From assembly GCF_004010195.1 (NCBI RefSeq), contig NC_057717.1:100081185-100145184 (forward strand): a stretch of 64,000 bases of DNA. The letters are read 5' to 3'. This document shows positions 3,475 through 58,842 of the stretch, piece by piece. Positions within the stretch are counted from its first letter, which is position 1. Each line of letters starts with the position of its first letter. This DNA comes from Chiloscyllium plagiosum. Lineage: Eukaryota. The translations under genes and the position numbers were made by a program. The notes beneath the pieces were generated by a model. It searched no databases, was not told the origin of the DNA, and saw nothing but the letters and a program-made list of their open reading frames with translations.

Positions 3475-3893
3475 GTATCATAGAATCCCTATATTGTGGA
3501 AGTAGATCATTCAGCCCCTGAGTCGACACTGACCCTCTGAAGAGTATCGAGGAGAAAGTGAGGACTGCAGATGCTGGAGATCAGAGCTGAAAATGTGTTG
3601 CTGGAAAAGCGCAGCAAGTCAGGCAGCATCCAAGGAACAGGAAATCGGTGTTTTGGGCATAAGCCCTGAAGAAACGTCGATTCTCCTGTTCCTTAGATGT
3701 TGCCTGACCTGCTGTGCTTTTCCAGCAACACATTTTCACCTCTGAAGAGTATCTCAAGCAGAACCACCCTATCTACCTAACCTGCACATCTTTGGACTGT
3801 AGGAGGAAACTGGAGTGCCTGGAGGAAATCTATGCAGACACGGAGAGCGTGCTATGAGGCAGCAGTGCTAACCATTGAGCTGCTGTGCTGCCC
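3475..3893 (-). mobile_element. Diverged HE1-type SINE interrupted by a Penelope-derived palindrome
   Basis: SINE tail at 3475-3548 resumes at ~3740 (acctaacctgcacatctttggactg...cagcagtgctaacc). Confidence 0.7.
3549..3738. mobile_element. Penelope-derived palindromic (hairpin) element with 15-bp TSD
   Basis: Arms tgaaaatgtgttgctggaaaag / cttttccagcaacacattttca; direct repeat cctctgaagagtatc at 3534-3548 and 3739-3753. Confidence 0.85.
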
Positions 3894-4374
3894 ATATTTG
3901 TGAATAATTGTTCCGCTCTAAAGGAGTTCACTCCATATGAGTTACTGTTTTTGTTTCATCAACTTTGCCACTTTCCGTTCAGCGCAATACAAGTCACATA
4001 CTTTTCTAATTCTATTCTTGATCAGGCCAATTATCTTCATTATTATTCTCAAGCCTAAATTTGTGTATAATCCCACAAAGGATTCAAATATTCTGAAGAG
4101 TTTTATTAATTTGATCTGTCCTTGCTAACAAAATAATTATGCATTCCTCGAGTGGTTTGTAAGGAGGTTTTAAATAATCCCTCCTTTTTCCTACCCACTT
4201 CCACTTCCTGTTGTCCCTCAAGAATAGAATATTGTTTTCGTGGAAGCATGCAAGATCCTTGCAGTATTCAACCGGGCAGATGTAGAAGGAATGTTACCCC
4301 TGGGGATGGGTCTCACTGGGGGCAGGCAGTTTTAGAATAAGGCCATTTTAGGACAAAGTGGAATATTTTGGGTT

Positions 4375-4669
4375 TGATTAGATTCCCTATAGTGTGGGAA
4401 CAGGCCATTCGGTCCAACCAGTCCACACCAACCCTCCAAAGAGTAACCCATTCAGACCCACTTCCCTCTGACTAATGCACCTAGCACTATGGCCAATTTA
4501 GCATAGCCAATTCATCTGACTTGCACATCTTTAGACTGTGGGAGGAAACCTACGCAGACACGGGGAGAATGTGCAAAATCCACACAGACAGTCGCTCAAG
4601 GCTGGAATCGAACCTTGGACCCTACTGCTGTGAGGCAACAGTGCTAGCCACTGAGCTACCATGCTGCCC
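4375..4669 (-). mobile_element. HE1-type V-SINE
   Basis: Homologous to 3126-3424 over its length. Confidence 0.8.
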
Positions 4670-6970
4670 ATAGAATATCTTAACACAGAAGGTAAGGAAT
4701 CTTTGGAATTCTGTCCAACCCTAAGGGCTTTAAAAGCTCCATCATGGAATATGTTCAAGACAGAAATTGAAAGGTTTCTAGAGATCCTGTGACGTCAAGG
4801 AATGTGCTCATAGCACAAGAATGGCATTGAGGTTGAAGATAGCAATGATCTATTTGACTGCTGGAGCTAGCTTGAGAGATTGAATGGCGTTTGCCTATGT
4901 TTCTATGGTTGTAGGTGATGATAATCAACATGTTTATCTGAGTCAGTGAAGTAGTTGTAGTCAAGCTATTTCTGATGGTGTAGTACATTGGATCATTTGG
5001 CCATTCATGTGATTATCAAAACATCTAATCTTCACCAAAACATGCTGTTGCCCAACTTCCTCTAACTCCATCGTCATCAAACTTCTGTTCCTTCCTCAGT
5101 TTTGCCTTTAAATGCAGCCATCATTGCATGTGTTTGTGTAAAGGCAATGACATTGTTATAAGGTGCATTTGTGAGAGTGGAGGTAAGCAGTGTTGTTGGG
5201 TCTGAGTAAAAGAACATTATGCTGGATCTGACCCAGCTACTGTAGTATCTGGGAGTCCTTTGGTCTGCATTTGTGAGGAGGTGAGACATGGCATTTTTAA
5301 TTCTTTTTCCAAATGTTGGATTTTGTAGAAAGGCGCTTGAGCAGTGAACAGAAATTGAGTATATTTGGAACTTTTTATTGAGCTATTTTGGTACTGTTTG
5401 AAACATTCTCAATGTAAAAAGATTAGAAACTTGAAAGAGGACAGTGTAAGAACAGGTGTAGGCCATTCAGCAACTTGTGCTTGTTCTGTATTTTGAGTAG
5501 ATCACAAGTGATTAACTGCATCCACTTCCTTTGGTTCTATAACTCTAATTGCCAGTAATGATAGGATCCTGTATGAAAACAGCTTCATTTACTCAGTATT
5601 CTTTTGAGGTGCAACTGTTCAGAAGGTTGTGTTACCTTTTTCTCGGACATTGAAACTGTTGACATCCTTTCAACTGTCTAGTAATGCATCTCTCTTTCAT
5701 TTGGGAAAGGTTGGATATTCATCAATGCTGAATTAATACTTACTGAATACTGAGTGGCACTGTTAACTGGCATACTTGCTGTGGTCAATCCCGAATGGTA
5801 CCATGGTTGAGGAATACTCCAGGGAATGATGCTTTACTGAGTAACGTGATAAGGGTTCTACCTGATTCACCACATACCAAACACTGGTTTCAAAGGTACC
5901 ACTGTGAGCACTTTTTGCCAAAGTAATTCTAAACCCTTCCTCATATAAAGTGTGTTACTGAGTTTCTGGTTCTGATATTTTGGGAAGTAATTTTACAGGA
6001 ATTCCTGAACTTCCAGAGGCATGTGAGATTTTTGTGTCGCAAACACCAGGGCAGCAATGACTGTTATGGAATGTGGACTGAATGCTAATACCAATGATGA
6101 CCTTTACATCCTTGCATTGTGTTTTTTTTTTCTAATGGTGTGGCCTAATGGACATGTGAGGTCTGACTGTTGCTGAAAAAAAAGTACTTGTGAAATGTTC
6201 AGTGTTTTCAAGAGCCACATGTGGAGATGAGATCTGTAAAATGGGTGCCAAGCTAAGGTGATGATGGATACGAATAGACTTTGGATCTCACATGTAGCAA
6301 TTCACTGTACTTGGAGCTTGTGGCTATAAGTACCCTTGCTGTAACACTGTCCAAAAAGTGTTTAAAAAAAAATTAAGGCCACGTTTACTGTGCAGAGGAT
6401 GTTGTTTCTGCACTTTACAACAAAACACAGGGGCTCACAATACTGATTACCATGTGGCTTTTCTTTTGCAGACAGGATTACTACAATAACAGATAACAGC
6501 AGGCTTATAGAAGAACAAAATCGAGGCAGTAAAGCCAGAGGAGACAAAGAGTGAGCAACACACAAAAGAGAAGAGAGAGGGAGACAGCCACGGGTATAGT
6601 GAGAAAGTGAAACAGTGCAACATGGCTGAGAGTAAAAAAGAGAGGATCAAAATTCGGGAGGAGCACAAAGGGAAAAGAGCTCACAGAGAACAGAGCGCAG
6701 TAAGTGAGAAGCAGACAGGTTGACTGACAGGCTGGTCAAATTACTGAAGATGCTTTCACAGTGGCATTTTCACAGTTGTAGTACTTGTTCAGGAGGCTAG
6801 CTTTTTATTAAGCACTAAACAAGTTTCATCCTCTCAACTGTTACTCATTGCACTAAAGTTTTACCTTGACATTAATTTGGTAAGATAGGTTGTTCACCAA
6901 GGACTGTGTTAATGCTTGCTGTGTACTGAGTAGCACTATTACCTGGCATTTTGTTTGAGGCCCTGAATAG

Positions 6971-7260
6971 GGGGTGGCATAGTGGTAATATCATGGACTA
7001 ATCAGAGGGCCAGGCTAATGTTCCGGGGATGTGTTTCCAAATCCTGGCGAAGTTTTAAATTTAGTTAGCCAGTCATGGTCGTGAAACTAGCCTCAGTGAT
7101 GGTGACCATACCAAATATCATGAATGATCGTAAAGACTACTCTGATTCACTAATGTCCTTTTAGGGAAGGAATTCTGTTGTCCTTTCCTGTGGTCTGGAC
7201 TACTTAGTTTAAGGATGAGTAGCAAATGCTCAATGTGTTAGTGATGACTGTGTCACATGG
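6971..7260 (+). mobile_element. Old tRNA-derived SINE (SacSINE/Deu-like)
   Basis: ggtggcatagtggtaat head; ctgattcactaatgtccttttagggaagg core; similar copy at ~57595-58025. Confidence 0.55.
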
Positions 7261-7739
7261 AAGAAAATAAAACAAATGAAAGGTTACTTAAGGAAAATTT
7301 ATTTTATGCAACAAGAGATCAGGATTTGGAATACTTGCCTGAAAGAGAAGCAGGCGCACATTCAGTAGTTGTCTTCAAAAGGAATTGGATAAATTGGAAG
7401 AAAGATTGCAGGGATATAAAGAATGGAGGAGGACTAACTGGATGGCTGTTCAGTGGGCCAAATGGTCGGCTGTTCAGTGCTCTCCAGTAATTCCGATGCA
7501 ATAAGAGCAGGTACATGTGGGATAGTGCACCACCGATGGGCTTTCCCAAGGATCCTAAGTTTAATTGGAGGCCTAGTGCTCCTGACTTGTCTCCAAATGT
7601 GCCTAGTGCTGATGCTGTTTGTTCCAATGCAGCCAGAGATTGAGTTATTCTGGAAGTTTTGTAGTTAGTTTTTGCACATGCAGTATTTCACATTGCTTGT
7701 ATTCTAAGTAGATTAAATAGCTTGATGGAGCTGTTATTA

Positions 7740-8270
7740 CGAGTACTCTGTACAGTTTTGGACTCCTCACTGAAGGAAGGATGTGCTTGCCATTGAGGGA
7801 GTGCAACAGAGATTTTGCAGATTGATTTCTGATTTGGCAGGACGGCTCTACAAGGTAACATTGAGGAGACTGAGCTGTATTCTCTTGAGTTTAGAAGAAT
7901 GAAAGGTGATCCATTTGAATCATGCAAAATTCTTGTGAGGCTCAACTGGGTAGATGCAAGAGGATACTTTCCAAGGGTGTTGCGGGTAGGTCTTGAAACA
8001 AGCAAAGCATTCTCTGAATAAAGGGCAGCACTTTAAGATTGAGAGGAGGAGGAATTTCTTCACTCAGAGGTTGGTGAATCTTTGGAGTTTTCTTACCAGT
8101 GGACTGTGGAGACTCCGTCATTGGGTATGTTCACAACAGAGATCAGTAGATTTCTACATATCTGGGATAGATCAGGGGGAACTGATTTAACCTCAGGCAA
8201 CTTTGAGATAGAAGGTCAGCATAATCTGGTGAATGACAGACCAAACCCAAGAGGCCAAATGCTTGTATGT
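7740..8270 (+). mobile_element. CR1-type LINE 3' fragment
   Basis: Decayed RT C-terminus (RRNFFTQRLVNLW; tttagaagaatgaaaggtgat) similar to the 48236 copy. Confidence 0.7.
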
Positions 8271-9050
8271 TAAATTGGCAGAATATTAGCTGAATACTGG
8301 AACGCGACTTCAGTAAGCTTTTGGTTTGTTGGTAGTGTCTGTACTCTGAGTCTGCTTTTTGAGTCTGCTTTACAGGCATACACTGGGTAAGAGCTTGACA
8401 GAATCAGGTGGTGCAATCTTTTAGTTTAAGAACATTAGTTCTTAAACCAAGGTACATATTCTGCTGTAACGTTCTGATAGTTTCATTGCAGACCTTGGGT
8501 CTAAGTGTTTTACACAATAAGCGCTGATTGCTGTAGCTAATGAGCAGGCTTTTGCGATTCAATCATTTGCATCCTCCACTCCTTTCCTTTTCCCTCCCAA
8601 TTCAGATGTTCTCTTCAAATAATGGTTACAGAATCGTTCCCGATCATTTGAGAAAATAATAGAGGTACCAATTTAATGTCTTATCTGGCATGACAGCACA
8701 CACTAAGTTCAAGACTGGGTATGTCAGTCAGGATTACGTATTGAGGTTTCTTCAGCCTAATGTAAACTGCTATGAAGAGGTTGAGGAAAGTATGGGCCTG
8801 TAACTATGAGAGTTTAGAAGAATGAGAGGTCATCTTATTGAAATAGGTAAGATCTTGAGGGGACTTGGAAGAGTGAATGCTGAAACAATGTCCCCTCTTG
8901 TGGAAGAGACTAGGACTAGGTGACAGTTTAAAAGAAGTTAAGGAGTTCTCATATTTTTCTGAAATATTTTTCTGTCTGATTGCAGGTCTGTAGAATTTTT
9001 TTTCTTAGAGTGGTGAGGGCAAGAACATTGGATTATTTTTACACAAGGTT

Positions 9051-9210
9051 ATAGAGTCATAGACTCATAGAGATGTACAGCACGGAAACAGACCCTTCGG
9101 TCCAACTAGTTCATACTGACCAGATATCTCAACCCAATCTAGTTCCACCTGCCAGCACCTGGCCCATATCCCTCCAAACCCTTCCTATTCATATACCCAT
9201 CCAGATGCCA
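9051..9210 (-). mobile_element. CR1/HER1-type LINE 3' terminal stub
   Basis: atagagtcatag...gatgtacagcacggaaacagacccttcggtccaac; same terminus as 48236. Other stubs at ~1722, ~12087, ~46465 and ~53457. Confidence 0.7.
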
Positions 9211-11381: not shown

Positions 11382-11820
11382 GTGAGTATGAGTACATTGG
11401 AAATTGGACTGTTGGTAGCAGGAAGCTGATGTACTCTAGTTATCCTCTCCTCAGGCTTCTTATTGAGTGAATAGGGAGAAAGCCCAGTTTTAAATAATTG
11501 ACAACATTTCCAGCAGAGAGGTTTGTGGAATTTTCTGTATGCAGTGAGTTTTCATGCATTGGCTGTAAGGGCAGTGGAAGCAGATTCAACTCCCAATTTT
11601 ATATATGTATATATATATATATAAAACATAGAACAGCCCAGCACAGAAACAGGCCCTTTGGCCCACCATGTCTGCAACAACCATGATGCCATTCTAAACT
11701 AATCTCATCTGCCTGTACATGATCATATCCCTCTGTTACTTGCAATTTCATGTGCTTGTCTAAATGCTTCTTAGACATTGCTGAATCATATCTTTTAATT
11801 ATTGCCTCTACCACCTGGCT

Positions 11821-12029
11821 AGGAGAAAGTGAGGACTGCAGATGCTGGAGATCAGAGCTGAAAATGTGTTGCTGGAAAAGCGCAGCAGGTCAGGCAGCAT
11901 CCAAGGAGCAGGAGAATCGACGTTTCGGGCATGAGCCCTCCTGAAGAAGGGCTCATGCCCCAAATGTCGATTCTCCTGCTCCTTGGATGCTGCCTGACCT
12001 GCTGCACTTTTCCAGCAACACATTTTCAG
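11821..12029. mobile_element. Penelope-derived palindromic element with 15-bp TSD
   Basis: ~85-nt inverted arms; direct repeat ctctaccacctggct at 11806-11820 and 12030-12044; nested in a CR1 remnant. Confidence 0.9.
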
Positions 12030-12229
12030 CTCTACCACCTGGCTGGCAGCATGTTCCAGGTATCTACCAACCTCTATGCCTTTCACATAGAGTCATAGAA
12101 ATGTACAGCATGGAATCAGACCCTTCGGTCCAACCTGTCCATGCCGACCAGATATCGCAACCCAATCTAGTCCCACCTGTCAGCACCTGGCCCATATCCC
12201 TCCAAACCTTTCCTATTCATCTCCTTTAA

Positions 12230-17340: not shown

Positions 17341-17501
17341 GCTCAGCTTCTGTATCTCCTGTGCTTTTTAATTTTAAAATGGCATCCTTACCATTTTTAC
17401 CATCTTCAGAAATCGTACGTGAAACACCTGTTCTTGCCTCTCCCACCCTTTGTAAAATTATGCTTTTTAATTAATTTTTTTTGTTTTGTCTCCACTCCTA
17501 G

Positions 17502-17673
17502 GTGTGTGATCTGTATGATGGACTTTGTATATGGTGACCCAATTCGGTTTCTGCCATGCATGCACATATACCACGTGGATTGTATTGACGAGTGGCTCAT
17601 GAGGTCCTTCACGTGCCCTTCATGTATGGAACCTGTAGACGCGGCTCTGCTTTCATCCTACGAGACCAACTGA
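17502..17673 (+). CDS. RNF11: RING finger protein 11-like, coding exon 3 (RING-H2 domain, stop)
   Basis: CVICMMDFVYGDPIRFLPCMHIYHVDCIDEWLMRSFTCPSCMEPVDAALLSSYETN*; polypyrimidine tract and ctag| acceptor. Total CDS 513 nt = 170 aa. Confidence 0.96.
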
Positions 17674-23406: not shown

Positions 23407-23517
23407 TACTTGATGGAATTTAGAAGGATTTTGTTGAAACTTAATTTAATAGTGAGTGTGGATGTGGAGAAGATGTTGCCACTAATAGGAACCAAAGACA
23501 CAGCCTCAGAGTGATGG

Positions 23518-23752
23518 GTCAGAGACCAAAACAAACTGCAGATGCTGGAATCCAAAGTTGACAAACAGGAGGGCTGGAAGAACACAGCAAGGCAGGCAGC
23601 ATCAGGAGGTAGAGAAGTCAACATTTCAGGTATAATCCTTCAGGATTGGAGGAGATGTAGTCCTGAAGAAGGGTTATATCTGAAATGTTGACTTCTGCAC
23701 CTCCTGATGCTGCCTGCCTTGCTGTGTTCTTCCAGCCTCCTGTTTATCTACT
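23518..23752. mobile_element. Penelope-derived palindromic element, second subfamily
   Basis: Inverted arms ggctggaagaacacagcaaggcaggcagcatcaggaggt / acctcctgatgctgcctgccttgctgtgttcttccagcc; TSD tcagagtga(t/a)gg at 23506-23517 and 23753-23764. Confidence 0.8.
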
Positions 23753-24783
23753 TCAGAGTGAAGGATTGACCTTTTTGAATGGATTTAGGAATTCCTTCAG
23801 CTGGAGGGGATGAATCTGTGGAACTCTGCCACAGAAGGCGATGGAGTCTCAAATCATTGTGTATTTAAGACAGTGATGGGTTATTTTTCTCTTCTACCCC
23901 TAAGTGTTATTGTGCACAACTGAGTGACTTTCCCACCACCAAACTCTGACTGTTTTTTCAACTAGTAGCCAATTGAATATTTACAAGCAAAGTCTAGATT
24001 AGAGTGGTGCTGGAAAAGCACAGCAGTTCAGGCAGCATCTGAGGAGCAGCAAAAGCCATATGGACAATGCAAACCATAAAAGGCAGGGAAGGTGGTTGTG
24101 ATAGGGAAAGCAGGAAGAGACTAAATCAAAATGGAATTGATAAGTAAGGGGATCAAGAATTTTGGGAGAAGGCAGGAGAAGGAGGTTGAGAAGTATTTAG
24201 CCATAATTGAATGGCAGAGCGACCCAGTGGACTGAGTCGTCTATTTCTGCTCATATATCTTATGGTTGACTGCATGACTGAGGTGTGTACCATCTACAAG
24301 ATGCCCTGCAGTAGCTCACTGTTGCTCCTTCAATAGCATGTTCCAAACAGAAATTTCTACCACCTAGAAGAACTGTGGATTTCAAAACATTGCCTACAAC
24401 TTCCCCTCTTACGTCGTGCATTATCCTGACTCAGATATGTATAGTTATTGCTTTAGTATTGATGGGTCAAAATCCTAAAACCTTATAAGCACCAAAGAAG
24501 TATTTAGAGTGTTTGGGTTGACATGATTCAAGAAGGCAGCCTACCACAACTTTTTCAAGGGCATTTGAAATGAATGACATGCGCTCGCCTCATGAGCAAC
24601 ACCGTTGTCCCAGGACTTTTTCTTTTAAACCCCTAGCTTTTTCTTTGTATCTTTGCATACAAACTCCTCGGAATGAAGTGATGAAATCGATGCTGAAATG
24701 AGACCCAAGTTAGGAAATTCTATGTGAATAATATTGATTTTATGTTTATAATTCAAGCATAGTGTGTCTATCTCTGGGGTGAA

Positions 24784-26072
24784 CGGAGAAAGTGAGGATT
24801 GCAGATGCTGGAGATCAGAGTTGACAGTGTGGTGCTGGAAAAGCACAGCAGGTCGGGCAGCATCCGAGGAGCAGGAGGATCAATGTTTTGGGCAAGACCC
24901 CTTAATCAAGGATGATGCTTGTGAGCTGAGGGGGTGGAGGGAATTTAGCTGAGAGTGCAATAGGTAGATGGAAGTGGGGATAATGGTGATAGGGTTGAGT
25001 GAATAGGCAGGGAAGGAAGATGGACAGGTCAGGAGGGTCGTGGTGAGTTGTAAGGTTGGAGGAGGGGAAATGAGGAAACTGGATACAGTAGATAACGTAT
25101 GGAAGTGCAGGTAAAACTTTGATGGATGTAGAAGGCTCCTTTTGGGGCCTTGGACAGAGGTGAGGGGATAAGCGATTTGGTTTGCAATTCCTGCAGTGGC
25201 AGGAGAAGGTGCTAGGAGGAGAAGGTGGGTTGGTAGGGGGCGTGAACCTGACAAGAGAGTCATGGAGAGAATCGTCTTTGCAGAAAGCAAATAGGAGGGA
25301 AATATATCTCGTGGTAGGGACTGTTTGTAGGCGGCAGAAATGGTGCATGTGTATGGAGGTTGGTGGGGTGGAAGGTGAAGACCAGGGGGGTGGGGTTCTG
25401 TCCTTGTTGTGGTTGGAGGGGTGGGGTTCAAGGGTGGAGGTGTGGGAAGTGTTTGAGATGCACTGGAGGGCATCATCGACCACATTGAGGGCAATTGCAG
25501 TCTTTGAAGAAGGAGGCCATCTGTATATATTGGGGAGATAGGATGCCTATTTGCAGAGCACTTCAGAGAACATCTCCAGGACACCTGCACCAACCAACCC
25601 CACCACCTGTGGTCAAACACTTCAACTTCAACTCCACCCCCCCTCCCCCAACTGCGCCAAGGACATGCAGGTCCTGGGCCACCTCCATTGCCACATTCTA
25701 ACCATCCAACACCTGAAGGAAGAACACCACATTTTCTGCCTTGGGACCCTCCAACCAGATGGCATCAATGTGGATTTCACCAGTTTCCTCATTTCCACCC
25801 CCCGGTCCATCTTATCCCAGTTCCAACTCAGCACTGCCCTTATGACCTGTCCTACCTGTCCATCTTCCTTCCCACCTATCCCCTCCACCCTCCTCTCCGA
25901 CTTATCACCATTATTCCACCTATCACACTCTCATCTGCCTTCTCCCCCCCAGCCCCACCACCCTCGGCTCACAAGCCTCATTCTTGATGAAGGGTGTTTG
26001 CCCGAAACATCGATTCTCCTGCTCTTCAGATGCTGCCTGAACTGCTGTGCTTTTCCAGCACCACACTATTGA
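24784..26072. mobile_element. Penelope-like element with inverted architecture (two opposed 3' portions)
   Basis: GIY-YIG C-terminal remnants (VVKHFN..; MQVLG..EEHHIFCLGTLQPDGINVDF) on +, RT/linker remnants on -. Terminal arms are inverted; TSD ctctggggtgaa at 24772-24783 and 26073-26084. Confidence 0.85.
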
Positions 26073-28818
26073 CTCTGGGGTGAAAGGCCTGTGTTCAAGT
26101 CCCACTTGCCTCTCGTTGTGTAACATAGCTGAACAAGTTAATTAAAATATCACAAATAGGGCTTCCCTTGTATTCCATGATTGAGCATGTTGGATTTCAG
26201 GTACCAATTGTCAGCACAAAACACTTACAGCTCATGTTTAGCATCTTGCTGTCTGTATCCAGTAGAACAGTGTTGGGTCAGACAGGATGACCTAATGGTT
26301 TGACATTTCCTTTCCCAATCTCCATATTTTGGAAGACCACTCAAAAATTGTGATGACATGCTGTTGTTGAACCCTTATGATGCAACCAAGAAAAATAGCT
26401 AAACTCTAGAAAGCAAAACATGTTTTGGTTAGTACTTCAGTGCAGTTTTGAGGAAATAGTTTCAGAAGCATGTTCAACAAAAAGGTAAGGGAGTTTCAAT
26501 CTAAAGGAGAAGTTACACAAGTGCCAACAAAAATGGATGTTCAGACTAAGACATCAGTAAGAAGCAGAAAAGTAATAAAAAGGTGCAAGACTAACAAATG
26601 TTAAAAAAAATGAAGAAAAGGTTATGTAGATGCATTAAAATTGGACAGATGGGAGGATAAATGAATTAGAAAGGGGCATTGATTAAATTATGACAAATGG
26701 AATGACATGGGTAACTGATCTCCACTAAAATCTAGGAAAGACCAAGTGAAATTGTATTTGTTTACTGATGAGGGTCTAGGGAGCTGTGGAGGAGTTTAGG
26801 GTTCCAATGTAAACCAGTCAATGAAGTTAGTGAACAGATAAAAAGGTAACCAAAAACGCTAACAGAATATTAGACTAGTCAGACAAATACTATGGGTATA
26901 AAAGGATAGAGGCTAAGCGTTTTGCAGTAAGCAACTCATCTCTTGCTTTCCCAATGTCTGTTAATTATTGATAAGGCATAAGAAGCTTGATACCATCCAG
27001 AATATAGCAGCCTACTTGGTTGACACCACATCCACTAATATTCATTCCCTTCACTACTAATGTTTAGTGTGTTCTATCCACAAAAAGCATTGCAGAGATG
27101 CAGCAAAGCTTCTTTAATGGCACCTTTCAAACTTAGGAACACTTCCACCTGGAAGGGCGAGGACAACAGCTACATAGGAACACCACCTTCAAGTGCCAAG
27201 GTATCCACAAGCCAGATATGGAAATATATCATTCTTCCTTCCTGTTGCTGGATCAAAATCCTGGAACACCCTCTGCAACGACTTTGGTGACATGCCATCA
27301 CCAAGTGGACTGCAGCAGTTCAAAAAGGCAACTCACCATCACCTTTAAGGGCAAATAGAGATGGGCAATAAATTTAAGCAAGCCAGTGATGCCCACATAC
27401 CCTGAGTGAATGTTTAAACATTGTTTAGGGTTATAATTGAGGAAATGATGTTCCGGTTGGACATACAAATTAGGATTAGGCTACTCAGTCCCTTGAGGGT
27501 GCTGCATCATTCAGTAAGACTATGCCTGATTTGACTACTTCACATTCCTGTCTACGCTTGATACGTTTTCACACTATTGCTTATCAGTAATCCATCTACG
27601 TCTGCCTTAAAGATACTTAAAAACTATTTCCACCAACATTTTAGGATGAATGTTCCAGAGATTCAGGAACCTGTGTGAGAAATGCCTCCTTAGCTCTGTT
27701 TTAAATGAGAAATACTTTATTTTAAACAGTGATTTCTGGATATGGCCTATTGAACCTATCTGGGGTACTGCATTAAGTGCTGAACGTTTGATCTCAAGAA
27801 TGAGGCTTTGGAACAGTGCGAATTCATCAGAATGATGTCTCAAGGAGTCAACTATTAGCATTGCATAGGTGTGGCTTGTTTCCCTTTATGACATCTCCTT
27901 TTACCATCAGAATTAGTACTGCCAATGGGGTAGACCTCATTTTCTGGAGCTATGCTAGAGCTGTTCTGGTCTCTTTAGCATGGAAGTCAGACATACTGGC
28001 AACTCCCTGCAGGAAGTTTGTGCACATTGAACAGTAATACAGTAGTCATGTTACTGGGTTTAGCAATCCAGAGGTCAAGTAGCACCACTAATCCAGAATC
28101 TGGTTTCCAGCATCTGCAGTCATTGTTTTTACTTACTTAAATGAATTGGAGACAACTCTTCCAGAACTAATCAGATGAGTTTCTAATGGCAATCTAGTAG
28201 TTTTACAGTGACAATGCCTTTTATTTCAAATTTAATTAATTGAATGTAAATTCACTGGCTGCTGTAACTGGGATTGAAATACATTTCCAATTCATTAATC
28301 CAGTCCTCTGGGTACCAGTCTAGTAACTTAACCACGCTAATAACATATCCTTCAAGCAAACCATGAGGACTTCTGTCCCCTCTATTGCCAGTGTCCATTT
28401 ACTAGCATGACACCTTTAGAATTTCCTTGTGAGTAACCTTCCATTTCCATCTTGTTCTGTCTTCTTGCACTCTGGAACACACTGTAATTATGGCGAGGAA
28501 AAGTCATATCAGACTCGAAACGTTAACTACTTCTCTCGCTACAGATTTAGCGATCTCCAGCATTTTGCTTCAATGTAATTATAATGAGCTGGCCCCAGTA
28601 TAATTCGGGCGATATTTGCATTGCTCTTAATTATTCAGATAAACCAAAGACTGCCGTTGCTAGACATCAGAAACAAAAGCAGAAATTGCTGGAAAATTGT
28701 TAGTCTTCAGGACTCAATTTCTAGTTCAATAATTTTAGGGTCTGAGCACCTTTTTCCATATCCTTACCCCGACCCCTATACAGTAGACTTTCTCATCACA
28801 CAGCTTGCTTTCACAAAT

Positions 28819-28989
28819 CGTGTTGAGTGTGTGGTGTTGGAAAAGCACAGCAGGTCATCCGAGCAGGAGAATCAACGTTTCGGGCGTAAAACCTTCATCA
28901 GTTTATGCCCGAAATGTCGATTCTCCTGCTCCTCGGGTGCAGCCTGACCTGCTGTGCTTTTCCAGCATCACCACTCCTCACTTTCTCCC
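28819..28989. mobile_element. Penelope-derived palindromic element
   Basis: Arms ggaaaagcacagcaggtca / tgacctgctgtgcttttcc; imperfect TSD tgct(t/a)tcacaaat at 28806-28818 and 28990-29002; nested in an older Penelope subfamily copy (~28660-29270). Confidence 0.75.
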
Positions 28990-30815
28990 TGCTATCACAA
29001 ATAACCCGTTTTCAGCAATTAGTGGACCCCATTAACAGCTATTGATTCTCCCAGGCTGATCATTACCTATTACTTTGCCTAATCGCTGTTCTCTCTCCAA
29101 GAGCTCGATCTATCATTTATTCCTTCCCCTCCCACCTTTAGCAGGTATGCCTACCTTTCTCTAGCTTCAATCAGTTCTGAAGATGGGTCACTGTACCCGC
29201 AATATCAACTATATTTTCTCTTCACAGATGCTATCAAACGTGCTGAGATTTCCCCCAATTTCTGTTTTGATTCTTAATTATTCAGAATGGGCGCTTCAAC
29301 ACACGATTATCTGCCTGAGTATCCCATCCTAATCAGTTGATACCAAAGCCAGTAGAGCTCAATGTAACTAAACTATAATTTGTCCCGTTCTCCTCTCACA
29401 TCACTTCTCTAAATTGTGAATTAGTTTCAGTTACTTTTCATACATTATTCCGAAAAGGTTCAAAGTCAATGTTTAATTCTGCAGCTCTTTCCTCACTCTC
29501 CTGGAGTGGTAGTGGTGATTGGATTGAGTGCATGAAACTAGTCTAGTTCTTCAATAAAGTTCACAATTTCTGCATACAAACGGAACAGAACGAATGACAA
29601 CTGGTTTATCTCAAAGTTAACTCGTATTTTACCGCCTAATTCGGGGCCTTGATAGATGCTGCAAGTTTCTCAGGCCCTTACTGGGATTTCAATAGTTAAC
29701 AACGAAGATTCTACTGTCAAACTTATGGTTGAGGATCATTCCAGTCTGATTTTGATACCCAACATCCCTAACTACGTTCGAGCCAGGAGTTACTTGCCTA
29801 CAATACTATCAAGAGGAGTCTTGCCCTGGTGTAGAATCCGGATGCATTGGAAAGTGATAATAGTAACACTCGAAAGCTCTTTATGATACTTTATTCAGTG
29901 AACTGCAAAAAAACTTGATTTATGTTCAGTACCTGAAAAATGACTAAATTGCGGCTGTAGACTGCACAATGAAACGACGTCGAGTGGAAACGACCAGTTT
30001 AAGTTCAAGGTAACCTCAACCTGGTCGAGTTATTGCCTTCCGTTCAGTTTTTGACCACTGTACAATTTTAATGTTATATTTTGTCGCTGTAGGAATAAAC
30101 AATAGTTTAACATAAGTGATTAGTAAGTATGAATTGATGAGCTGTGCCATTGCTGGATCTTGTTCCCATCACTCGGGAATGGTAGAGAGGCCATAATCAA
30201 TTGCTGTTTCCTTCTCTCTGTGTTGGGTCTATGGAATTATCTTCCTTACACAGTAGTGGAGACTGGATTGGATGGATTCTGGATTATCAAAAGGTCAAAA
30301 TAAAATTGAAAAGTATAAGGGCAGGTCCTCCCCGCCTCAAAAACACACAGTAGACAGGACCCCACATTGGGCACAACTGAAGGAATTATCACAGCCGTGC
30401 TCCCGCTCTTACAGACCCTCATTCTCAGAGGCTGAAAACTTTCAAACCTCAATATGGGGTCACAGCGGAAAATAAAAGTTTGGGAAGGACTGGTACACAG
30501 GCTAGACGTGACTAACCCAACCAGTGTAACTGAACATATGTCTCCCAGCTGCTGCTAGTTACCAGGTTTACACCATCTAACTTCTCGACAGGAAATTCCA
30601 CCAATGATATCTATCCCAGCGAATTCTTGTTGAAAAGTGGAGCTGCTTGGACAGCAGATGATACCAAAGTGAAAAGCTCCTTACTATTAAAAAAATCTGC
30701 TCACCTTAGTTGTTAGTTATACAGGTAACATCTAAAGGCTTGTCAACTTCGATGAATGTACAAGAGTCGGTGGAGAATGATCAACAGCTAAACACCTGGT
30801 TGACTCGCTGCCATG

Positions 30816-30972
30816 GAGAAAGTGAGGACTGCGGATGCTGGAGATCAGAGTCGAGTGTGTGGTGCTGGAAAAGCACAGCGGGTCATGCAGCATCCGAGGA
30901 GCAAGAGAATCGACGTTTTGGGCAGCCTTCATCAGCCTCTCATTCCTGCTGTTCGGATGCTGCATGACTTGC
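30816..30972. mobile_element. Penelope-derived palindromic element with 15-bp TSD
   Basis: gagaaagtgaggactgcggatgctggagatc start; direct repeat tgactcgctgccatg at 30801-30815 and 30973-30987. Confidence 0.85.
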
Positions 30973-31313
30973 TGACTCGCTGCCATGTTCAATTCACCAC
31001 ATTTAGTTGGGAAGAAAGAAGTCAATCTTCCATCAATTTCTGATCAGCCCTAATGCACAAAAACGGTGCTGTACAAAAATTATGAGAATTGTCAGCAATG
31101 AGTTTATCATATCCAAAATGAATTAATGCTAATGCAGAACGGTACCAGGAGTCAAATAACATAGGGTATAGGCACAAAGTGACAAATCATGGTTATAGGT
31201 ATCTAGGGGGTCAACGTTTGTACATTGGTGAGGGGACATTGCAGATTGGGAAAATGCTTGTGATATCAGGTTTTCAGGCAGAAGAATCCAGTGTGAAGTG
31301 ACTGGCTTTTCCT

Positions 31314-42847: not shown

Positions 42848-42950
42848 CTTAGAGTGGTGCTGGAAAAGCACAGCAGTTCAGGCAGCATCCGAGGAGTAGG
42901 AAAATCGAGGTTTTGGGCAAAAGCCCTTCATCAGGAACACAGGCAGAGTG
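42848..42950 (-). mobile_element. Penelope terminal fragment with decayed hammerhead motif
   Basis: Reverse strand reads CTGATGA-A-GGGC-TTTT-GCCC-AAAA-CCTC; similar stub at ~23990-24050. Confidence 0.7.
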
Positions 42951-43004
42951 TAGACAGTAGTTTTCGAAAAATTGCTGAACTCTGAGGGGAGGGTTGAAAT
43001 CTGA

Positions 43005-44620: not shown

Positions 44621-44745
44621 TGGATAACATTTCTTTTTCGTGGTGATGGGAGGGGAGGGCAATGAACTAACGGCATCTTTCACCAATTCCCCAGCCCTGC
44701 TCATTAACCAGGAGGCAAATTGAGAGCAAAATCTCTCGCTCTTAC

Positions 44746-45021
44746 AATATTCAGCACGCTTTTCTTCCTGTCGCTCTGGGCCTCAGCACTTTGCTCCTGG
44801 CCAGCGGCCACACTCCTCTTGCCTCCATTGTCTATGTCCCCGCCGCTCGGCGCGGCTCCCCCTTCGCTCCTCAGCCTCTCCTCCTCCATCTTCTTCTTGA
44901 AAAGTGCCATGAAGCTGCCATCGTTGGCGAAGGCGTTCACCCCTTTGCTCTCCGAGCCACCGTCCGCTTCGCTCGGCTCGGAGCTTCCAGAAACTTCGCG
45001 GTTCCTCCGCCTCTCCGCCAT
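44746..45021 (-). CDS. TRIR: TRIR coding exon 1
   Basis: MAERRR...GVNAFANDGSFMALFKKKMEEE...SVLNI; donor |gtaaga. The ATG is 2 nt from an N gap, so an upstream start cannot be excluded. Confidence 0.9.
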
Positions 45022-45712
45022 CTNNNNNNNNNNNNNGGGCGCCGGGGGCGGAGCGGGCGGGGGGGGGGGGGGGTGGTGTGTGTGTGCGTGTGTGGAAATG
45101 GGAGGGGAGAGGGTAAAAGACAGCCGCCAGAACGAATCTACACCCTCAAACACAAACAAATCACTGGCTCAACAAAAAAACGGGGCCAGCCGCCTCATTT
45201 TCCTCTCCAAAGAAGGTGTGGTCGAGGAACCCCCCCCCCGCCGCCGATATCTTGGATTAGGCGACAACTGCGCATGACCGAACTTTAAACCGCCCCAAAT
45301 ATTTCCCTTTCCTTCCCCCCCTCAGCCGAAACAAAAACAAATTTCAATGACCACGAATCGTAACATTTCAAATTTCATGATCAGTGAACGTGCAGCTGCC
45401 CGTTCTAAAAAAGGATATCGATTGAAATGTGGTACCGAACCAATCTGAACGCGTTTTACTAAAACGGCGTTGGACCAATCAGTGTCGAAGATGGAAGGTG
45501 GTGTGAAGGGGGCAATACGTGGAGTTTCGAGGCGCGGAATATCTCGAATGTGAGAAAAAATACCCTGGTCTTAACCCCGCTTTCGATGGCGTTAAAATAG
45601 CCCGCTCGTCAGATGATCGTGTTTTTAATTATTAACTACAAATAAGTTGAGAAGTTCGAGGTCGGGTGATTCATTCTCTCTATCAATCCTCGGTCACGTG
45701 GTACCTTCCGAG
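45022..45712. promoter_or_regulatory. Bidirectional CpG promoter shared by TRIR and GET3
   Basis: Divergent ATGs ~0.69 kb apart. CCAATC at ~45440 and ~45476, NRF1-like tgcgcatg ~45269, E-box gtcacgtgg ~45693; 13-N gap at 45024-45036. Confidence 0.85.
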
Positions 45713-50904: not shown

Positions 50905-50924
50905 GTAATGTGGGAGGGAACAGA

Positions 50925-51540
50925 ATTTATTGTTGTCGCATATGCCTAAGTACTGTGGAAAGTTCTGTTTTGCGTGCAGTACAGGCAGATTATAATATGC
51001 AAGGACATATTGATCAAAGGGTGTTTAGAGTGGGGCATACAAGGTTATGACTGCACAGGAGCTGCACGGAAGCAAGATCATCGTTTCAGTTTGAAATTAG
51101 AAAGTTCCATTCAGCAGTCTAATAACGGTGGGGAAGAAGCTGTTCTTGAACCTGTTAGGATGTTTGTTTAATCTTCTGTTTGAGACTGATAGTAGAGGTT
51201 GGAAGAGAGTATAACTGGTGTGGTAGGGGTCTTTGATGATGTTGGCCACCTTTCTGCAGCAACGAGAAGTGTATATGGAGTCCGAGGATGGGAGTTTGGC
51301 TTTCGTGATGGTCTAGGCTGTGTTCACAACTTTTTGTAGTTCTTACGGTCCTCAGCAGAGCAATTGCTGTAACAAGCCCTGATGCATCTGGACAGAATGC
51401 TTTCTATGGCGCATCTGTAAATGTTGGTGAGGTTCCTTGTGGAAATTCTGAATCTCCTTAGTCTCCTGAGGAGGAAGAGGTGTTGCTGTGGAGGACCAGG
51501 GCAGTTTGTTGATTATTGTCACTCCTAGGAACTTGATGCT
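50925..51540 (-). mobile_element. LINE 3' fragment, probably Rex1/Babar-like
   Basis: tttatt tail then ggggaagaagctgttcttgaacctg ... gaggaagaggtgttgctgtg resembling fish Rex1 antisense; recognition by eye. Confidence 0.5.
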
Positions 51541-53795: not shown

Positions 53796-53946
53796 GTTGG
53801 TGAAAGGCATGAATTTCTCAGTAGTAGTGTTTGACACAGCACCAACAGGGCATACGTTACGACTTCTGAACTTTCCGACTATCGTTGAGAGGGGACTTGG
53901 GCGACTGATGCAAATTAAAAACCAGATCAGCCCTTTCATCTCCCAG
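53796..53946 (+). CDS. GET3: GET3 coding exon 4
   Basis: Manual translation [50 protein letters not shown] (switch II DTAPTGH); acag| and |gtagc. Confidence 0.97.
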
Positions 53947-54047
53947 GTAGCATAAGCCAATTACTTAATTTGCTCTGGAAAAGTTTAGACAATATATTAA
54001 CAGTAAATTGGTGCTAAGATTGAGATTCTAATTGCTCTGTCAGTGGT

Positions 54048-54570
54048 GGAGAAAGTGAGGTCTGCAGATGCTGGAGATCAAAGTTGAAACTTTATTGCTG
54101 GAACAGCACAGCAGGTCAGGCAGCATCCAGGGAACAGGAGATTCGACGTTTCGGGCACAGGCCCTTCTTCAGGAATGAGCAGAGAGTGTTCAGCAGGAGA
54201 AGATAAAAGGTAGGGATGAGGGACTTGGAGGAGGGGCGTTGGAAATGTGATAGGTGGAAAGAGGTCAAGGTGAGGGTGATAGGTCGGAGTAGGATGGAGG
54301 CGGAGAGGTCAAGAAGAAGACTGCAGGTCAGGAAGGCGGTGCCGGGCTGGAGGGATCCGGCTGAGACAAGGTGGGGGGAGGGGGGATGAAGAAACTGGTG
54401 AAGTCCAAGTTCATCCCCTGCGGTTGGAGGGTTCCCAGTCGGAAGATAAGACGCTCCTCCTCCGACCGTCGGGTTGTTGTGGTTTGGCGGTGGATGAGTC
54501 CAATGACCTGCATATCCTCGGTGGAGTGGGAGGGGGAGTTGAAATGCTGTGCTACAGGTTGGTTGGGTGC
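54048..54570 (-). mobile_element. Young Penelope-like element 3' fragment (GIY-YIG C-terminus plus terminal repeat)
   Basis: Minus-strand translation NQPVAQHFNSPSHSTEDMQVIGLIHRQTTTTRRSEEERLIFRLGTLQPQGMNLDF is typical of Penelope endonuclease ends; CpGs retained. Confidence 0.9.
54141..54176 (-). ncRNA. Putative minimal type I hammerhead ribozyme
   Basis: Minus strand: ATTC-CTGAAGA-A-GGGC-CTGT-GCCC-GAAA-CGTC-GAAT = stem I, CUGANGA, stem II, GAAA, GUC cleavage triplet, stem I'. Confidence 0.7.
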
Positions 54571-55796
54571 AAAATGTGCCTTTTGTAGTACTTTTGAATG
54601 CCAATGGACTAAGAAGAGATTGAAAGTAAAATTGGACAGCATTTCTACTCCTTGTGCTATCCAGTGTTGGCAACATTGTAATGCTTGCAAGTGTAGAATA
54701 TTTTTCCTATGATCAAATAGCCTACCAACAATTACTTCATGTTTACATGTCGGGAACTGCCACTTCAAAATAATAGGAGGTTACTGCACAAGTGGAAGTG
54801 GTAAAGCACAAAGAAAGGAATAAGATCAGAAGGAAGGAAATAGAGCAACATTTATTCATTGTTTATGTATTTTAAGCATAATTTCAAATCAGTCCCTGAG
54901 GCACTGTTTGATTACGGGGTCGCCCAAAAGTTTGTTTGAAGTTGTATGTGTTCATGCTGTAAAACGTGGCCATTGCTTTTGCTTTGAAATCTGCATATGT
55001 TTGACAAATGAGCATAGGAATTAGGAGCAGGAATAGACACTTTGGCCCTTTGAGCCAGCTCTGCAATTCAATAAGATAACATAGATCTGGTTGCTCCACA
55101 TTCCTGCCTAACCCGTCAGTCCCATGCTTTTCAAGAATCTATATAAATCTGCCTTAAAGATATTCAAAGACCCTGCTTTCACCCCCTTTTGAGGGCGAGT
55201 GAATCAAAGATTCATGGTCCTCTGAGAGAGTTTCTCCTGTGCCTGTTTTAAATTGGTAGTCGCTTATTTTTAAATGGTAACCCCAAGCTCTAGATTCCCC
55301 CACAAGAGCATACATCTCTTCCACATCAATCCTGTCAACACCCCTCTGGTTACTATCTGCTTCAATCAAGTTGTATATTGCTCTTCTAAATTGCACAACC
55401 TAAACAGGGGATACTCCATTATACAGCAGGTGGGTTAGGTCTTCTCCCAGTTGACAAACAGCCAGTCTATTCCAGTTAAGCTGTGCAATTGCTACATATG
55501 GAAAGTCTTGATATGCATGTTGGTGAATTACTGGTGTGATAAATCTTCATATTGTTCATAGGTCTTCCATACATAGTGTGCATTTGGATTATTAGCATTT
55601 TAATGTTAAAGCATGTAGTTTTGGAATAGAATGAACTAAGGTACTTTCCATATAAGTGCATTGACCTTTTAAATTAAAAAAAAAATGACTGAGATGTTCC
55701 GCAAACATTTAACTTTAAATAATTGGTCGGTCTGTATCATCTTTCTACTGGTTGTGCGGTCAAACTGTATTTATTTAATCATTGCTAACATTTCAG

Positions 55797-55904
55797 ATGT
55801 GCAGTATGCTTGGACTCGGTGACATGAATGCAGATCAACTTGCTTCAAAGCTAGAAGAAACCTTACCTGTCATTCGTTCAGTCAGTGAACAGTTTAAAGA
55901 CCCG
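55797..55904 (+). CDS. GET3: GET3 coding exon 5
   Basis: [36 protein letters not shown]; ttcag| and |gtaat. Confidence 0.96.
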
Positions 55905-56124
55905 GTAATTATCACTTAATTTTTTTGTTCCCCTTTGTCTAAAGACCAGTACTGACATGAGGATTAATGGTTTAACTGAAGTTGTCATTGACTTGGGAGT
56001 ATTGAGATTAAACTGTAGTGTGAAAGATCATAGCAGTCACTGAACCCTTTTTTCTTTTCAATAAATCTCATGCTAGTCCACCGATTCTGGAATTTGTGAA
56101 CTCTGGATTGCTGGTCCAGTACTA

Positions 56125-56666
56125 CAGAGGAACCTCGATTATCCGAATACCAATTATCCAAAAATCGGATTATCCGAAGGAGATCTAGAGGTCCCGATGG
56201 AAACATTACATTAATGATGCGTTTCCAACACTGATCGCGATTAAACAGGCATCGTCTCCAAATGACTGACTGACCGCTCTCGCTCTCTCTGCCCCCCCCC
56301 ACCGGAGTTCTACACAGGGGTGTACTCTTAAACCCCCCTTCCCCAGATAATCTCTCCAACATTGTCCTGTACAGGGCAAAGGTGGAACCTGTCAAAAAGG
56401 TGTGTGTGTGCGCGCAATTTGGAGACTTACTCTACAAAGGCAACTGCAGCAGTCTTACTGTTGGGTGTCCAGTCCAGTCCAGCTGCCCCGGGGGGAGGAG
56501 GAGGGAGCAGCGGGGCTTTTTGTGCTTTTGCAGTCTCATGAACGGGGAGCAGACTTTTAAAAAGCTCCGAACCCCAGAGGAAAGGCATTTAATCGATTAA
56601 CTGAATAATTGATTATTCGAGCGAAATAGTGCCTGCCATCACATTTGGATAATCGAGGTTCCCCTG
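56125..56666. mobile_element. Tigger/pogo-like MITE (non-autonomous DNA transposon)
   Basis: 24-bp TIRs CAGAGGAACCTCGATTATCCGAAT / ATTTGGATAATCGAGGTTCCCCTG (22/24); TA on both sides; subterminal GATTATCCGA repeats. Confidence 0.9.
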
Positions 56667-57023
56667 TATACCTCCAAAGCAGCGATATTCTAATAATTGG
56701 CATTACCTGGACAAATTGAATGAATTGCTAATTTGTGCTTTAAATTTATCATTCTGGGAGGCAATCACTTCTGATGGTGCAAAAGTCTCCCAGTACTGCA
56801 CAGAAGCAAAGGCTGTTCTGAAATCCTGGTATGGAGCCATAGCCACCTTGAGTCATGGATACTTTTGCTACTGAATGAGACAACAAGAGGAATACTGGAG
56901 AAAGTTAGGACAAAGTGAAAGGAAGTGTGAAATCAAAGCTGACGTTTTTGCTGCAGTTGCCACTGTTGGATGAGTTCCAAGATGACAGTTATCTACTAAA
57001 TCTGTTTTCTGGCCTTTTCACAG

Positions 57024-57224
57024 GAACAGACCACCTTCATCTGTGTTTGCATTGCTGAGTTTCTGTCCTTATATGAGACTGAACGACTAATTCAAGAGTT
57101 GGCCAAGTGTAAGATTGACAGCCACAACATAATAGTAAACCAGCTAGTATTTCCAGACCCTGGGGAGAAACCATGTAAGATGTGTGAGGCTCGACACAAA
57201 ATCCAATCCAAATATCTAGACCAG
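57024..57224 (+). CDS. GET3: GET3 coding exon 6
   Basis: [67 protein letters not shown] with CxC and Zn-binding CxxC; acag| and |gtaat. Confidence 0.97.
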
Positions 57225-58338
57225 GTAATGTTATAATGGCATAAACTTTCTATTTTGTTTGTATTTTGCACAGAAAATGTGACCAGCACCATATGACCAG
57301 CAATATTAGCCTCAGGCTTGAATTGGATCAGCTATTTGTTTAATGCACTCTGGGTTTGAGCTCATTTTGGATTATCCATTTGAAATTAAGAGATAGGAAC
57401 ACTAATGTTAGCTTACCGCTATGCCAGCATCTTCCTATGTTCCTTTCTAATTTTCACTGCTGCTGTCTGCACCTCCAAGGTCAGTGCATGCCAGCGATTT
57501 CTGGAACTGAAAGTCATTGATTCCTCACACTGGATGTGTGCCAGACCCTCTGAGTAGCTGTCCAAGCACACCGCTTCAAGGAACCATTCATGATCATGTC
57601 AGTAGTAATTCACAGGTTCAGGCTAATGTCTTGAGGGCAAAAACAGAAATTGCTGGAGAAGCTCAGCAGGTCTGATTGCATGTATGGAGACAAAGCAAAG
57701 TTCATGTTTTGAGTTCTGTGACCCTCTTATTTGAATGTTTTGATGCCATGGGTTCAGATCCCACCACTGTTGCTGGTGAGATTAACAAACCGATTCATTA
57801 ATAAATTTGGAATAGAAAGCTGGTGTCTGTAATGGTGATCATGAAAGTTATCAGCAGTTTTTAATAAAGCACCTTGTTCACTTAAGGAAATCTGCTATTC
57901 TTATCTGGTTTGGTCTACATGTGCCTTGAGATGCAGAAATGTAGATGGCTCTTCCTTGTATTCAGATCAAGGCCATCAGGGATGAGCAATAAATCCTGGG
58001 CTTGCCAACACTACCCACATCAAATACTTTTTAGAAAAAGGAGTTGGCTGTTCAGTTTCTTCAGTGTGTTTGATTATTTAGTCAGATTGTAGCTGTTTTG
58101 TAGTTCAACTCTATTAATCCCTTCTTTGACCTATTCATCTGATGTCCTTGCTTTCAAAATCCCTTTTGAAAATTTCAAATAACTCAGAGAAGGAGTTTCA
58201 AGTTACCTCACCCATCTGTTGCAAACAAATGCCCCAAGATCTTTGAAGGTGGTTCCTCAGACTTGTTTTGAGATTGTGGGTGATTTGTGTCAGAATGTGG
58301 TCTCTTTAAATTTTTTTGCATGGCTATATGTGTAAGGT

Positions 58339-58581
58339 GCTGAAAATGTGTTGCTGGAAAAGCGCAGCAGGTCAGGCAGCATCCAAGGAACAGGAGAATC
58401 GACATTTCGGGCATAAGCCCTTCTTCAGGAATGTCTTCAGGAAGTCTTTCCTCATTCCTGAAGAAGGGCTTATGCCCGAAACGTCGATTCTCCTGTTCCT
58501 TGGATGCTGCCTGACCTGCGCTTTTCCAGCAAGACATTTTCAGCTCTGATCTCCAGCATCTGCAGTCCTCACTTTCTCCTC
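58339..58581. mobile_element. Penelope-derived palindromic element with two opposed hammerhead motifs and 15-bp TSD
   Basis: ~95-nt inverted arms; direct repeat ctatatgtgtaaggt at 58324-58338 and 58582-58596; hammerhead cores at 58458-58485 (+) and 58401-58428 (-). Confidence 0.92.
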
Positions 58582-58842
58582 CTATATGTGTAAGGTAACT
58601 TAAAGGCACCGACATGTTTGCGGTCTGCATGGAGGCTTTCTGGTTTCTGAGCGGCTGCACAGCTGAGAGAGAACAGTAATTGTGTTTTCTTCTTATGAAT
58701 TTATAATAGTTTCTCAGTAACTATTGCTCACCTGGCGAGCGCATATCCAATTTTCCCGCTAAGGGGTAGCTCATCATTTGCACCTCAAGTGCTCTTTTTG
58801 TGAATAAGATTACTTTAGCTTGTCTGTCTGTTTTTCTTTCAG

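Follow-up and report, generated by a model that had tools for sequence, protein, structure and literature searches.

Within a 64,000-nucleotide (nt) stretch of the Chiloscyllium plagiosum contig NC_057717.1, hereafter the window, short palindromic sequences made of two opposed termini of a Penelope retroelement recur between direct repeats of host DNA. This raises the question of whether such hairpins form a non-coding family of their own or are products of a coding Penelope element, and how both of their outer ends came to be element 3′ ends. The analysis favours, with a probability of about 0.72, that an autonomous Neptune-type Penelope produced each hairpin independently, as an extremely 5′-truncated inverted insertion, via two head-to-head complementary DNAs (cDNAs), with a run-off stop as the preferred end of synthesis.

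Inverted copies and their target sites

A census of the window with one arm as query yielded seven inverted copies, all examined in full, together with three single arms or copies (at 24000, 42850 and 54045), a tail fragment (28099) and a piece of the open reading frame (ORF) at the window start. Six of the inverted copies are hairpins with 157–243 nt between their target-site duplications (TSDs), in agreement with a preliminary description of this DNA that had reported six elements of 150–250 base pairs (bp). Their folding energies (−68 to −182 kcal/mol) lie far below the means of shuffled sequences (−45 to −63); the weakest fold is that of the 30801 copy (−68, compared with −49 ± 3.5 for its shuffles). 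Arm identities across the hairpins range from 72 to 98%, with several subfamilies represented; the 23506 copy is a member of a related family (72–86% identity to the other arms, and a different tail). The centre was said to differ in every copy, and it does: it is unique in 6/6 hairpins, and no two of them share one.

The longest exact repeats flanking the six hairpins measure 15, 15, 15, 15, 9 and 8 nt, and that flanking the long inverted copy (24785–26072) measures 12 nt. Among 3,000 random flank pairs taken from the window, none had a repeat of at least 15 nt and one had a repeat of at least 12 nt. The four exact 15-bp TSDs listed in the preliminary description (3534/3739, 11806/12030, 30801/30973 and 58324/58582) were thereby confirmed, and the imperfect TSDs of the two older copies also hold, with 11/13 (23506/23753) and 12/13 (28806/28990) positions matching by eye around exact cores of 9 and 8 nt. 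The AT content of the TSDs is 33–67%, compared with 59% for the window. As a proxy for empty sites, paralogous host repeats were used rather than orthologous sites. In the host-repeat paralog at 3173–3213, the TSD of hairpin 1 (copies at 3534–3548 and 3739–3753) is present once, and both flanks project to the same base (offset 0); thus, the repeat of the 3534 copy behaves as a true TSD. The 11806 and 23506 copies, too, have flanks that look derived from repeats, presumably SINE/CR1-like ones; for the 11806 copy, flank paralogs were found only at least 50 nt from the junction.

For the anatomy of the arms, the scissile bond of a minimal hammerhead motif was set to zero, which places the motif's core at −28 and the 5′ edge of its helix I at −32; the ORF sets the sense strand. 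The arms of all inverted copies face outward, so that each of the two host junctions is an element 3′ end and two 5′ truncations meet at the centre. All seven copies have a TSD and a “tail” of 30–40 nt on one arm only. The tail ends at about +97 to +100, and the tail-less arms end 31–37 nt before that point in 6/7 copies, the exception being the 30801 copy. That the longer arm always ends in the same motif is correct for four of the six hairpins; the 28806 copy (internal deletion) and the 23506 copy (different tail) depart from it. Homology of 4–6 nt to the template is present at 3/7 tail-less junctions and absent from two, the CTCT-type homology having a P of about 3 × 10−5 in a post hoc test. 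Microhomology at the short arm is therefore real, but to call it frequent was too generous, as at least 4 nt are found at only 2/6 hairpins (3/7 copies if the long one is included). Because the TSDs of the young copies, when counted with the microhomologous bases, reach exactly 15 nt (4/4), these bases are read as belonging to the target, which suggests a stagger of 15 nt. The notion that both 3′ ends are 3′ splice sites, based on a pyrimidine tract plus AG in the youngest subfamily, was dropped, since other subfamilies end there without AG.

The arm 5′ ends of the six hairpins, determined by local alignment and accurate to a few bases since the motif is partly palindromic, lie at −21/−20, −24/−30, −39/−30, −13/−28, −26/+5 and −41/−33. 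Eleven of the 12 arms thus reach 13–41 nt to the 5′ side of the scissile bond, without any arm ending at it. Three arms end within or next to stem II (−13 to −21), and several stop 5′ of this palindromic stem (−28 to −41). Six of the seven inverted copies are centred in one 30-nt zone, and none is centred between +5 and +60 on both arms. The proposed tie between breakpoints and the hammerhead is real in the window but concerns the 5′ edge of the motif and not the cut. Two of the centres have a peculiar make-up. That of hairpin 1 (3664–3680) joins the core straight to GAAA, stem II being skipped at a 3-nt repeat, possibly through slippage of the reverse transcriptase (RT) past a folded RNA stem. 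The central filler of the youngest hairpin (58434–58452) repeats the last bases of the tail-less arm and may have been inserted in a templated manner, for instance, by RT re-priming or by polymerase-theta joining.

Source element and long inverted copy

The end of the ORF is carried by the 54045 copy and by the long inverted copy. Best relatives of the 54045 fragment are two cartilaginous-fish proteins, P0001 and P0002 (63–66% identity), both of which carry RVT_1, a Cys-rich linker and GIY-YIG; tblastn maps their Cys-linker/GIY-YIG region onto both the 54045 copy and the long copy, in which the linker is decayed. Pfam gave no match for any of the five ORF fragments of the window. Three properties of endonuclease-containing (EN+) Penelope-like elements (PLEs) are present: an RT plus a GIY-YIG at the C terminus in one ORF (through homology to P0001/P0002), a terminal repeat with a minimal hammerhead motif (by motif scan, with its core, stem II and GUC/GA), and inverted or tandem pseudo-long terminal repeats (pseudo-LTRs) with a one-end tail of 30–40 nt and a TSD. 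The ascription of the hairpins to Penelope was, therefore, borne out by ORF-end homology, RVT_1/GIY-YIG relatives and tblastn mapping. A Cys-rich linker between RT and EN, as seen in P0001/P0002, defines the Neptune clade (PMC3846280, PMC8557442; these and the papers cited below are used as far as their accessible sections go), and Nematis likewise has a linker motif (PMC8557442). The source is best described as a putative Neptune-type PLE, assigned by the linker alone, as the window holds no RT core.

Rfam returned no match in the window at gathering scores, and the hammerhead was called by our own motif scans. In the youngest hairpin, the motif consists, in order, of the helix I 5′ strand, the CUGAAGA core (at 58458), stem II, GAAA, GUC and the helix I 3′ strand, with the predicted scissile bond after 58485. 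Helix I is able to form 4 bp in 2/7 copies checked.

The long inverted copy has its tail on the left and its tail-less end on the right, the latter with 5 nt of microhomology. Its left arm comprises tail, hammerhead and 3′ untranslated region (3′-UTR) to about −232, then jumps to the GIY motif and continues upstream through the Cys linker into the RT thumb. The right arm starts at the YIG motif, ∼20 nt beyond the GIY landing point, and runs to the ORF end, the hammerhead and the tail-less end. The ORF stretch missing from the left arm is thus almost exactly the one found only in the right arm. In this one old copy, the twin-primed look hints that both primers shared one RNA; the skip in the left arm could also be a later deletion. 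Because this coding copy, overlooked earlier, shares the ends and the anatomy of the hairpins, the latter are not the separate non-coding family they had been taken for; they are the short end of the insertion spectrum of one autonomous element.

A proposed two-primer mechanism and its rivals

In the favoured mechanism, the GIY-YIG endonuclease, probably as a dimer, would nick both target strands ∼15 nt apart, leaving 3′ overhangs. With uncleaved sense RNA as the template, each 3′-OH would prime cDNA synthesis, the first at the tail site and the second, sometimes aided by 4–6 nt of pairing, at the tail-less site. The two cDNAs would converge, mostly halting 13–41 nt past the scissile bond, and would be joined head to head by end-joining with microhomology or templated filler. 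The least certain step is the halt, which would be run-off at an RNA 5′ end near the 5′ edge of the hammerhead (about −32), much like the strong-stop DNA of retroviruses. Template jumping by cDNAs, or their initiation at a downstream pseudo-LTR, would give rise to long and tandem copies. By eye, there is a match to the Initiator consensus at −32, which carries little weight. Two primers are preferred because both host junctions are element 3′ ends and because of in vitro data on Poseidon of the anole (Frangieh 2024, PMC11167929); element 3′ ends at both junctions fit a scheme in which both nicked strands prime at the two start sites of reverse transcription found in vitro.

Beyond the window, two contig sets (X2 and X14, from the same and a second species) and two RNA runs (X21 and X22) were aligned to the 54045 copy, which served as reference and coordinate frame. 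Aligned were 37,469 same-species contigs, 36,269 second-species contigs and 3,384 reads (∼2% of X21), but no reads of X22; the contigs represent all copies, not only hairpins, and their depth was not taken as copy number. The loose ends and joints described below are from the best-supported 18 of 1,070 loose-end entries, 15 of 31 joints and 12 of 28 filler joints. Loose ends pile up at the tail end (655 contigs of X2, 717 + 350 of X14 and 643 + 180 reads of X21), with heterogeneous flanks (flank agreement 0.35 in the contig entries), and near the tail-less end (346, 439 and 556 + 162, respectively). Many copies thus have the two 3′ ends fixed. At loose ends clipped at −13 (279, 332 and 196), the consensus remains element-like up to about −32. 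Across the hammerhead, X21 depth in successive bins going 5′ is 1866, 1384, 552 and 207, the depth directly 5′ of the cut being 74% of that directly 3′ of it. X21 reads are found on both strands, as expected for passengers in host transcripts. Both runs are poly(A) single-cell libraries, a type unsuited to transcript starts or cut sites, and X21 has no pile-up of molecule starts or ends, which such a library could not reveal.

Seven of the joints connect opposite strands; judged from side lengths, two are outer-end and five centre-like. The inner ends of the latter lie at −32, −28, −18, far upstream, +4, +4, +17, +18, +56 and +58, two of the ten within 4 nt of the cut; mismatches private to the reference can clip alignments 3′ of the cut. 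Other joints restart at the tail or the tail-less site after truncation, resulting in partial tandems. At the joints 54048–54096 (five contigs of X2, two of X14) and 54039–54085, a tail end abuts the tail-less end of another copy in opposite orientation, which suggests insertion at the end of a pre-existing copy. The joints 54178–54507 and 54179–54508 connect about −34 with the C-terminal region of GIY-YIG, 328 nt being skipped; they reflect either a subfamily with an internal deletion or template jumps that began where hairpin arms stop.

Several observations weigh against the two-primer mechanism with run-off. No transcript start at −32 was observed (which poly(A) single-cell runs cannot show). 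The in vitro work used Poseidon, not Neptune, and reported the start of reverse transcription as homology-free (PMC11167929). The basis is the seven window copies seen in full, and the empty-site proxy was usable for one of them, the other six giving no flank pair. One arm of the 30801 copy stops at +5. Six of the ten inner ends are at or 3′ of the cut, so the cluster at the 5′ edge may be looser genome-wide. Finally, both the fall in X21 depth and the clipping at −13 are confounded by upstream subfamily divergence.

A serious rival agrees with the favoured mechanism in everything but the run-off step: 5′ truncation would be random, short hairpins would have been picked, and joining would be favoured at the palindromic motif, so that the clustered centres reflect ascertainment and end-joining and no special RNA end. 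Such an origin of the clustering is possible rather than probable. The window does contain long and single copies (24785, 54045), the ends of several joints lie 3′ of the cut, and the near-palindromes of the motif supply microhomology; the census, in contrast, returned as many as six of seven inverted copies within the 30-nt zone, and several arms stop 5′ of the palindromic stem. Improbable is fold-back or self-priming, in which a single cDNA (or an antisense RNA; PMC3846280) folds at the self-complementary stem II and copies back the second arm. Arms do stop in or beside stem II, sublineage variants are common to both arms in the 11806 and 30801 copies, and palindromic junctions have been read as self-priming (PMC3846280). 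However, the farthest-upstream bases of the 3534 and 11806 copies are in the orientation of the tail-less arm and missing from the tail arm, so that fold-back fails in these copies because a tail-arm cDNA cannot yield them. Moreover, the tail is not copyable from the tail-less arm, each arm of the long copy has ORF sequence missing from the other, and in the youngest subfamily the arms of one copy are no more alike (90, 96 and 98%) than are arms of different copies (89–96%). Where the preliminary description had proposed fold-back or twin priming, priming from both target strands is thus retained and fold-back is not.

The same description had seen ribozyme-processed RNA as the template. Hammerhead-cleaved short RNAs, or circles derived from them, are quite unlikely to be the usual one, even though breakpoints lie near the motif, helix I can form in some copies, and a cleave-and-circularise model exists (PMC4209133). 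None of the 12 arms ends at +1 and 11 hold sequence 5′ of the cut, X21 depth drops only by about a quarter there, a circle would not stop at −32, and, in vitro, hammerhead mutants left insertion unchanged, with no anole RNA-seq ends at the cut (PMC11167929). Two joints end at +4; since the reference has a mismatch at +3, they may in fact end at the cut, and they allow a cleaved template as a minority route. Least credible is amplification of a pre-formed hairpin in the manner of a miniature inverted-repeat transposable element (MITE) or a short interspersed nuclear element (SINE). The hairpins are short, palindromic and abundant and have TSDs of near constant length, but their centres differ, several subfamilies contributed copies, the arms are asymmetric by virtue of the tail and so are not true terminal inverted repeats, and identical ends occur in a coding member. 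With none of the centre-type joints among the best-supported 15 found in more than two contigs, this upholds the earlier view that the copies arose independently by target-primed reverse transcription and not in a MITE-like manner.

Taken further, the two-primer mechanism would link double strong-stop products, a dimer with a fixed 15-nt stagger, a pairing-aided second site, a transcript starting at the first base of the hammerhead, and a shared tandem RNA in long events; that all of these hold together is tentative and rather doubtful. If double run-off and a shared RNA were true, the many genomic copies would preserve a record of the geometry of the cut, of the two start sites and of the 5′ end of the RNA, and the origin of the inverted and tandem repeats of Penelope would be explained.

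Neighbouring features and known systems

Table 1. Penelope-derived features of the window (positions in the window; TSD, target-site duplication).
Feature	Position	Strand	Remarks
Hairpin 1, including both TSDs	3534..3753		Tail arm left (element sense on −), tail-less arm right; within host repeat
Hairpin 2, including TSDs (11806–11820, 12030–12044)	11806..12044		Tail arm left; 4-nt microhomology at tail-less end
Older hairpin, related PLE family	23506..23767		Imperfect TSD (9 nt exact); tail ~35 nt
Long inverted member, hairpin-like anatomy	24772..26087		TSD 12 nt exact (15 with one mismatch)
Older hairpin	28804..29002		Tail arm right, with internal deletion; imperfect TSD (8 nt exact, 12/13)
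Hairpin with exact 15-bp TSD	30801..30987		Tail-less arm unusually short (~+5 to +36)
Youngest-looking hairpin	58324..58596		Arms 98% identical; tail arm right; complete minimal hammerhead in both arms
Minimal type I hammerhead motif (predicted)	58454..58489	+	Motif scans
“Tail”, ~37 nt between tail-less end and tail end	58545..58581	+	Alignment; spans gap between the two inferred start sites of reverse transcription
Single non-inverted 5′-truncated copy	54045..54575	−	GIY-YIG C-terminus, 3′-UTR, hammerhead, tail
Single arm, related subfamily	42850..42937	−	By eye; no TSD found
Short single arm fragment, related subfamily	24000..24049	−	
PLE ORF piece (RT thumb region)	1..210	−	Cut by window edge

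Termini resembling other, older Penelope families, recognized mostly by eye, lie at 239–320, 28099–28129, 28500–28700 and 29170–29235, and a motif scan found a decayed hammerhead at 29177; several PLE lineages appear to be present within the 64 kb. A RING-H2 protein (Pfam zf-RING_2, E = 1.6e-14), which we take to resemble RNF11, has its last exon at 17485–17673 on the + strand, and hairpins 1 and 2 may reside in introns of its gene. A GC-rich, first-exon-like ORF with an acidic/basic stretch occupies 44704–45030 on the − strand; it had no Pfam match and presumably resembles TRIR/C19orf43. The 13 N bases of the window apparently lie just upstream of it, as judged from an X run in the translations.

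Being abundant, with very short products and clean 15-bp TSDs, such a family makes a convenient natural dataset for the stagger, the two start sites of reverse transcription and the stop point, and one that can also decide between two-primer and self-priming models; the fixed ends and the 15-base duplications offer hints on cutting and copying by the enzyme. In annotation, hairpins of this kind can be mistaken for MITEs or for precursors of microRNAs, and, when transcribed, they would form long stems of double-stranded RNA.

During L1 twin priming, the second target strand primes by short homology, and the resulting inversions are not palindromic. The long copy resembles such products in that adjacent, non-overlapping parts of the ORF lie in opposite orientation, whereas the window copies repeat the same terminal 90–130 nt in both arms. 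Retrozymes are likewise short, non-coding and hammerhead-bearing, and MITEs are short, non-coding and hairpin-forming. Unlike retrozymes, the hairpins have no direct terminal repeats with two same-strand ribozymes, their two motifs being on opposite strands; unlike MITEs, they have neither a shared centre nor symmetric terminal inverted repeats.

Closer parallels exist among PLEs. In Schistosoma, minimal hammerheads are paired on opposite strands 100–700 bp apart (Cervera and de la Peña 2014, PMC4209133); these are probably of the same kind, namely, two opposed PLE termini, and receive one sentence in the accessible sections, with neither junctions nor TSDs analysed. In Drosophila virilis, the promoter is in the pseudo-LTR and an intron begins 46 bp after the start (PMC2377424); that intron ends at helix I (PMC4209133). 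The protein of anole Poseidon (PAc) nicks and extends both strands, is a predicted dimer, and inserts uncleaved RNA; its reverse transcription starts at two internal sites bounding the tail, and hammerhead cleavage is dispensable (PMC11167929). The PAc start site is 85–92 nt past the hammerhead cut, compared with 97–100 in the window copies. PAc, of the Poseidon clade, is reported to use AT-rich targets and no primer-template homology, whereas the copies described here are Neptune-type, with TSDs of 33–67% AT and homology at 3/7 junctions. Later steps of insertion are left unvalidated in the accessible sections of that study (PMC11167929), which also name no stagger length and do not explain the formation of inverted copies.

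In the literature covered (most subscription papers and Repbase/Dfam lay outside it), nothing was found on short Penelope hairpins in cartilaginous fishes or a 15-bp TSD, nor on homology at the second start site, arms stopping near the 5′ edge of the hammerhead, or a long twin-primed-looking copy. The route to the inverted and tandem repeats of PLEs is described as unresolved (PMC8557442). An inverted 5′-truncated copy with a 30–40 bp tail at one end is typical of these elements (PMC8557442, PMC8969392, PMC3846280), and TSDs measure 8–10 bp in the rotifer Adineta (PMC3846280); PMC5753468 and PMC6155905 contribute nothing further to the comparison. With the published inverted pseudo-LTR insertions of EN+ PLEs (Arkhipova 2013, PMC3846280; Craig 2021, PMC8557442; Schostak 2008, PMC2377424), the window copies have in common the head-to-head 5′-truncated copies, the tail of 30–40 nt, the TSD, the hammerhead and the partial tandems. 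The published insertions flank an ORF and, in Adineta, have TSDs of 8–10 bp, whereas 6/7 copies in the window consist of only the two termini, and the TSD is 15 nt. The architecture is, thus, a known one, and the hairpins are its minimal form.

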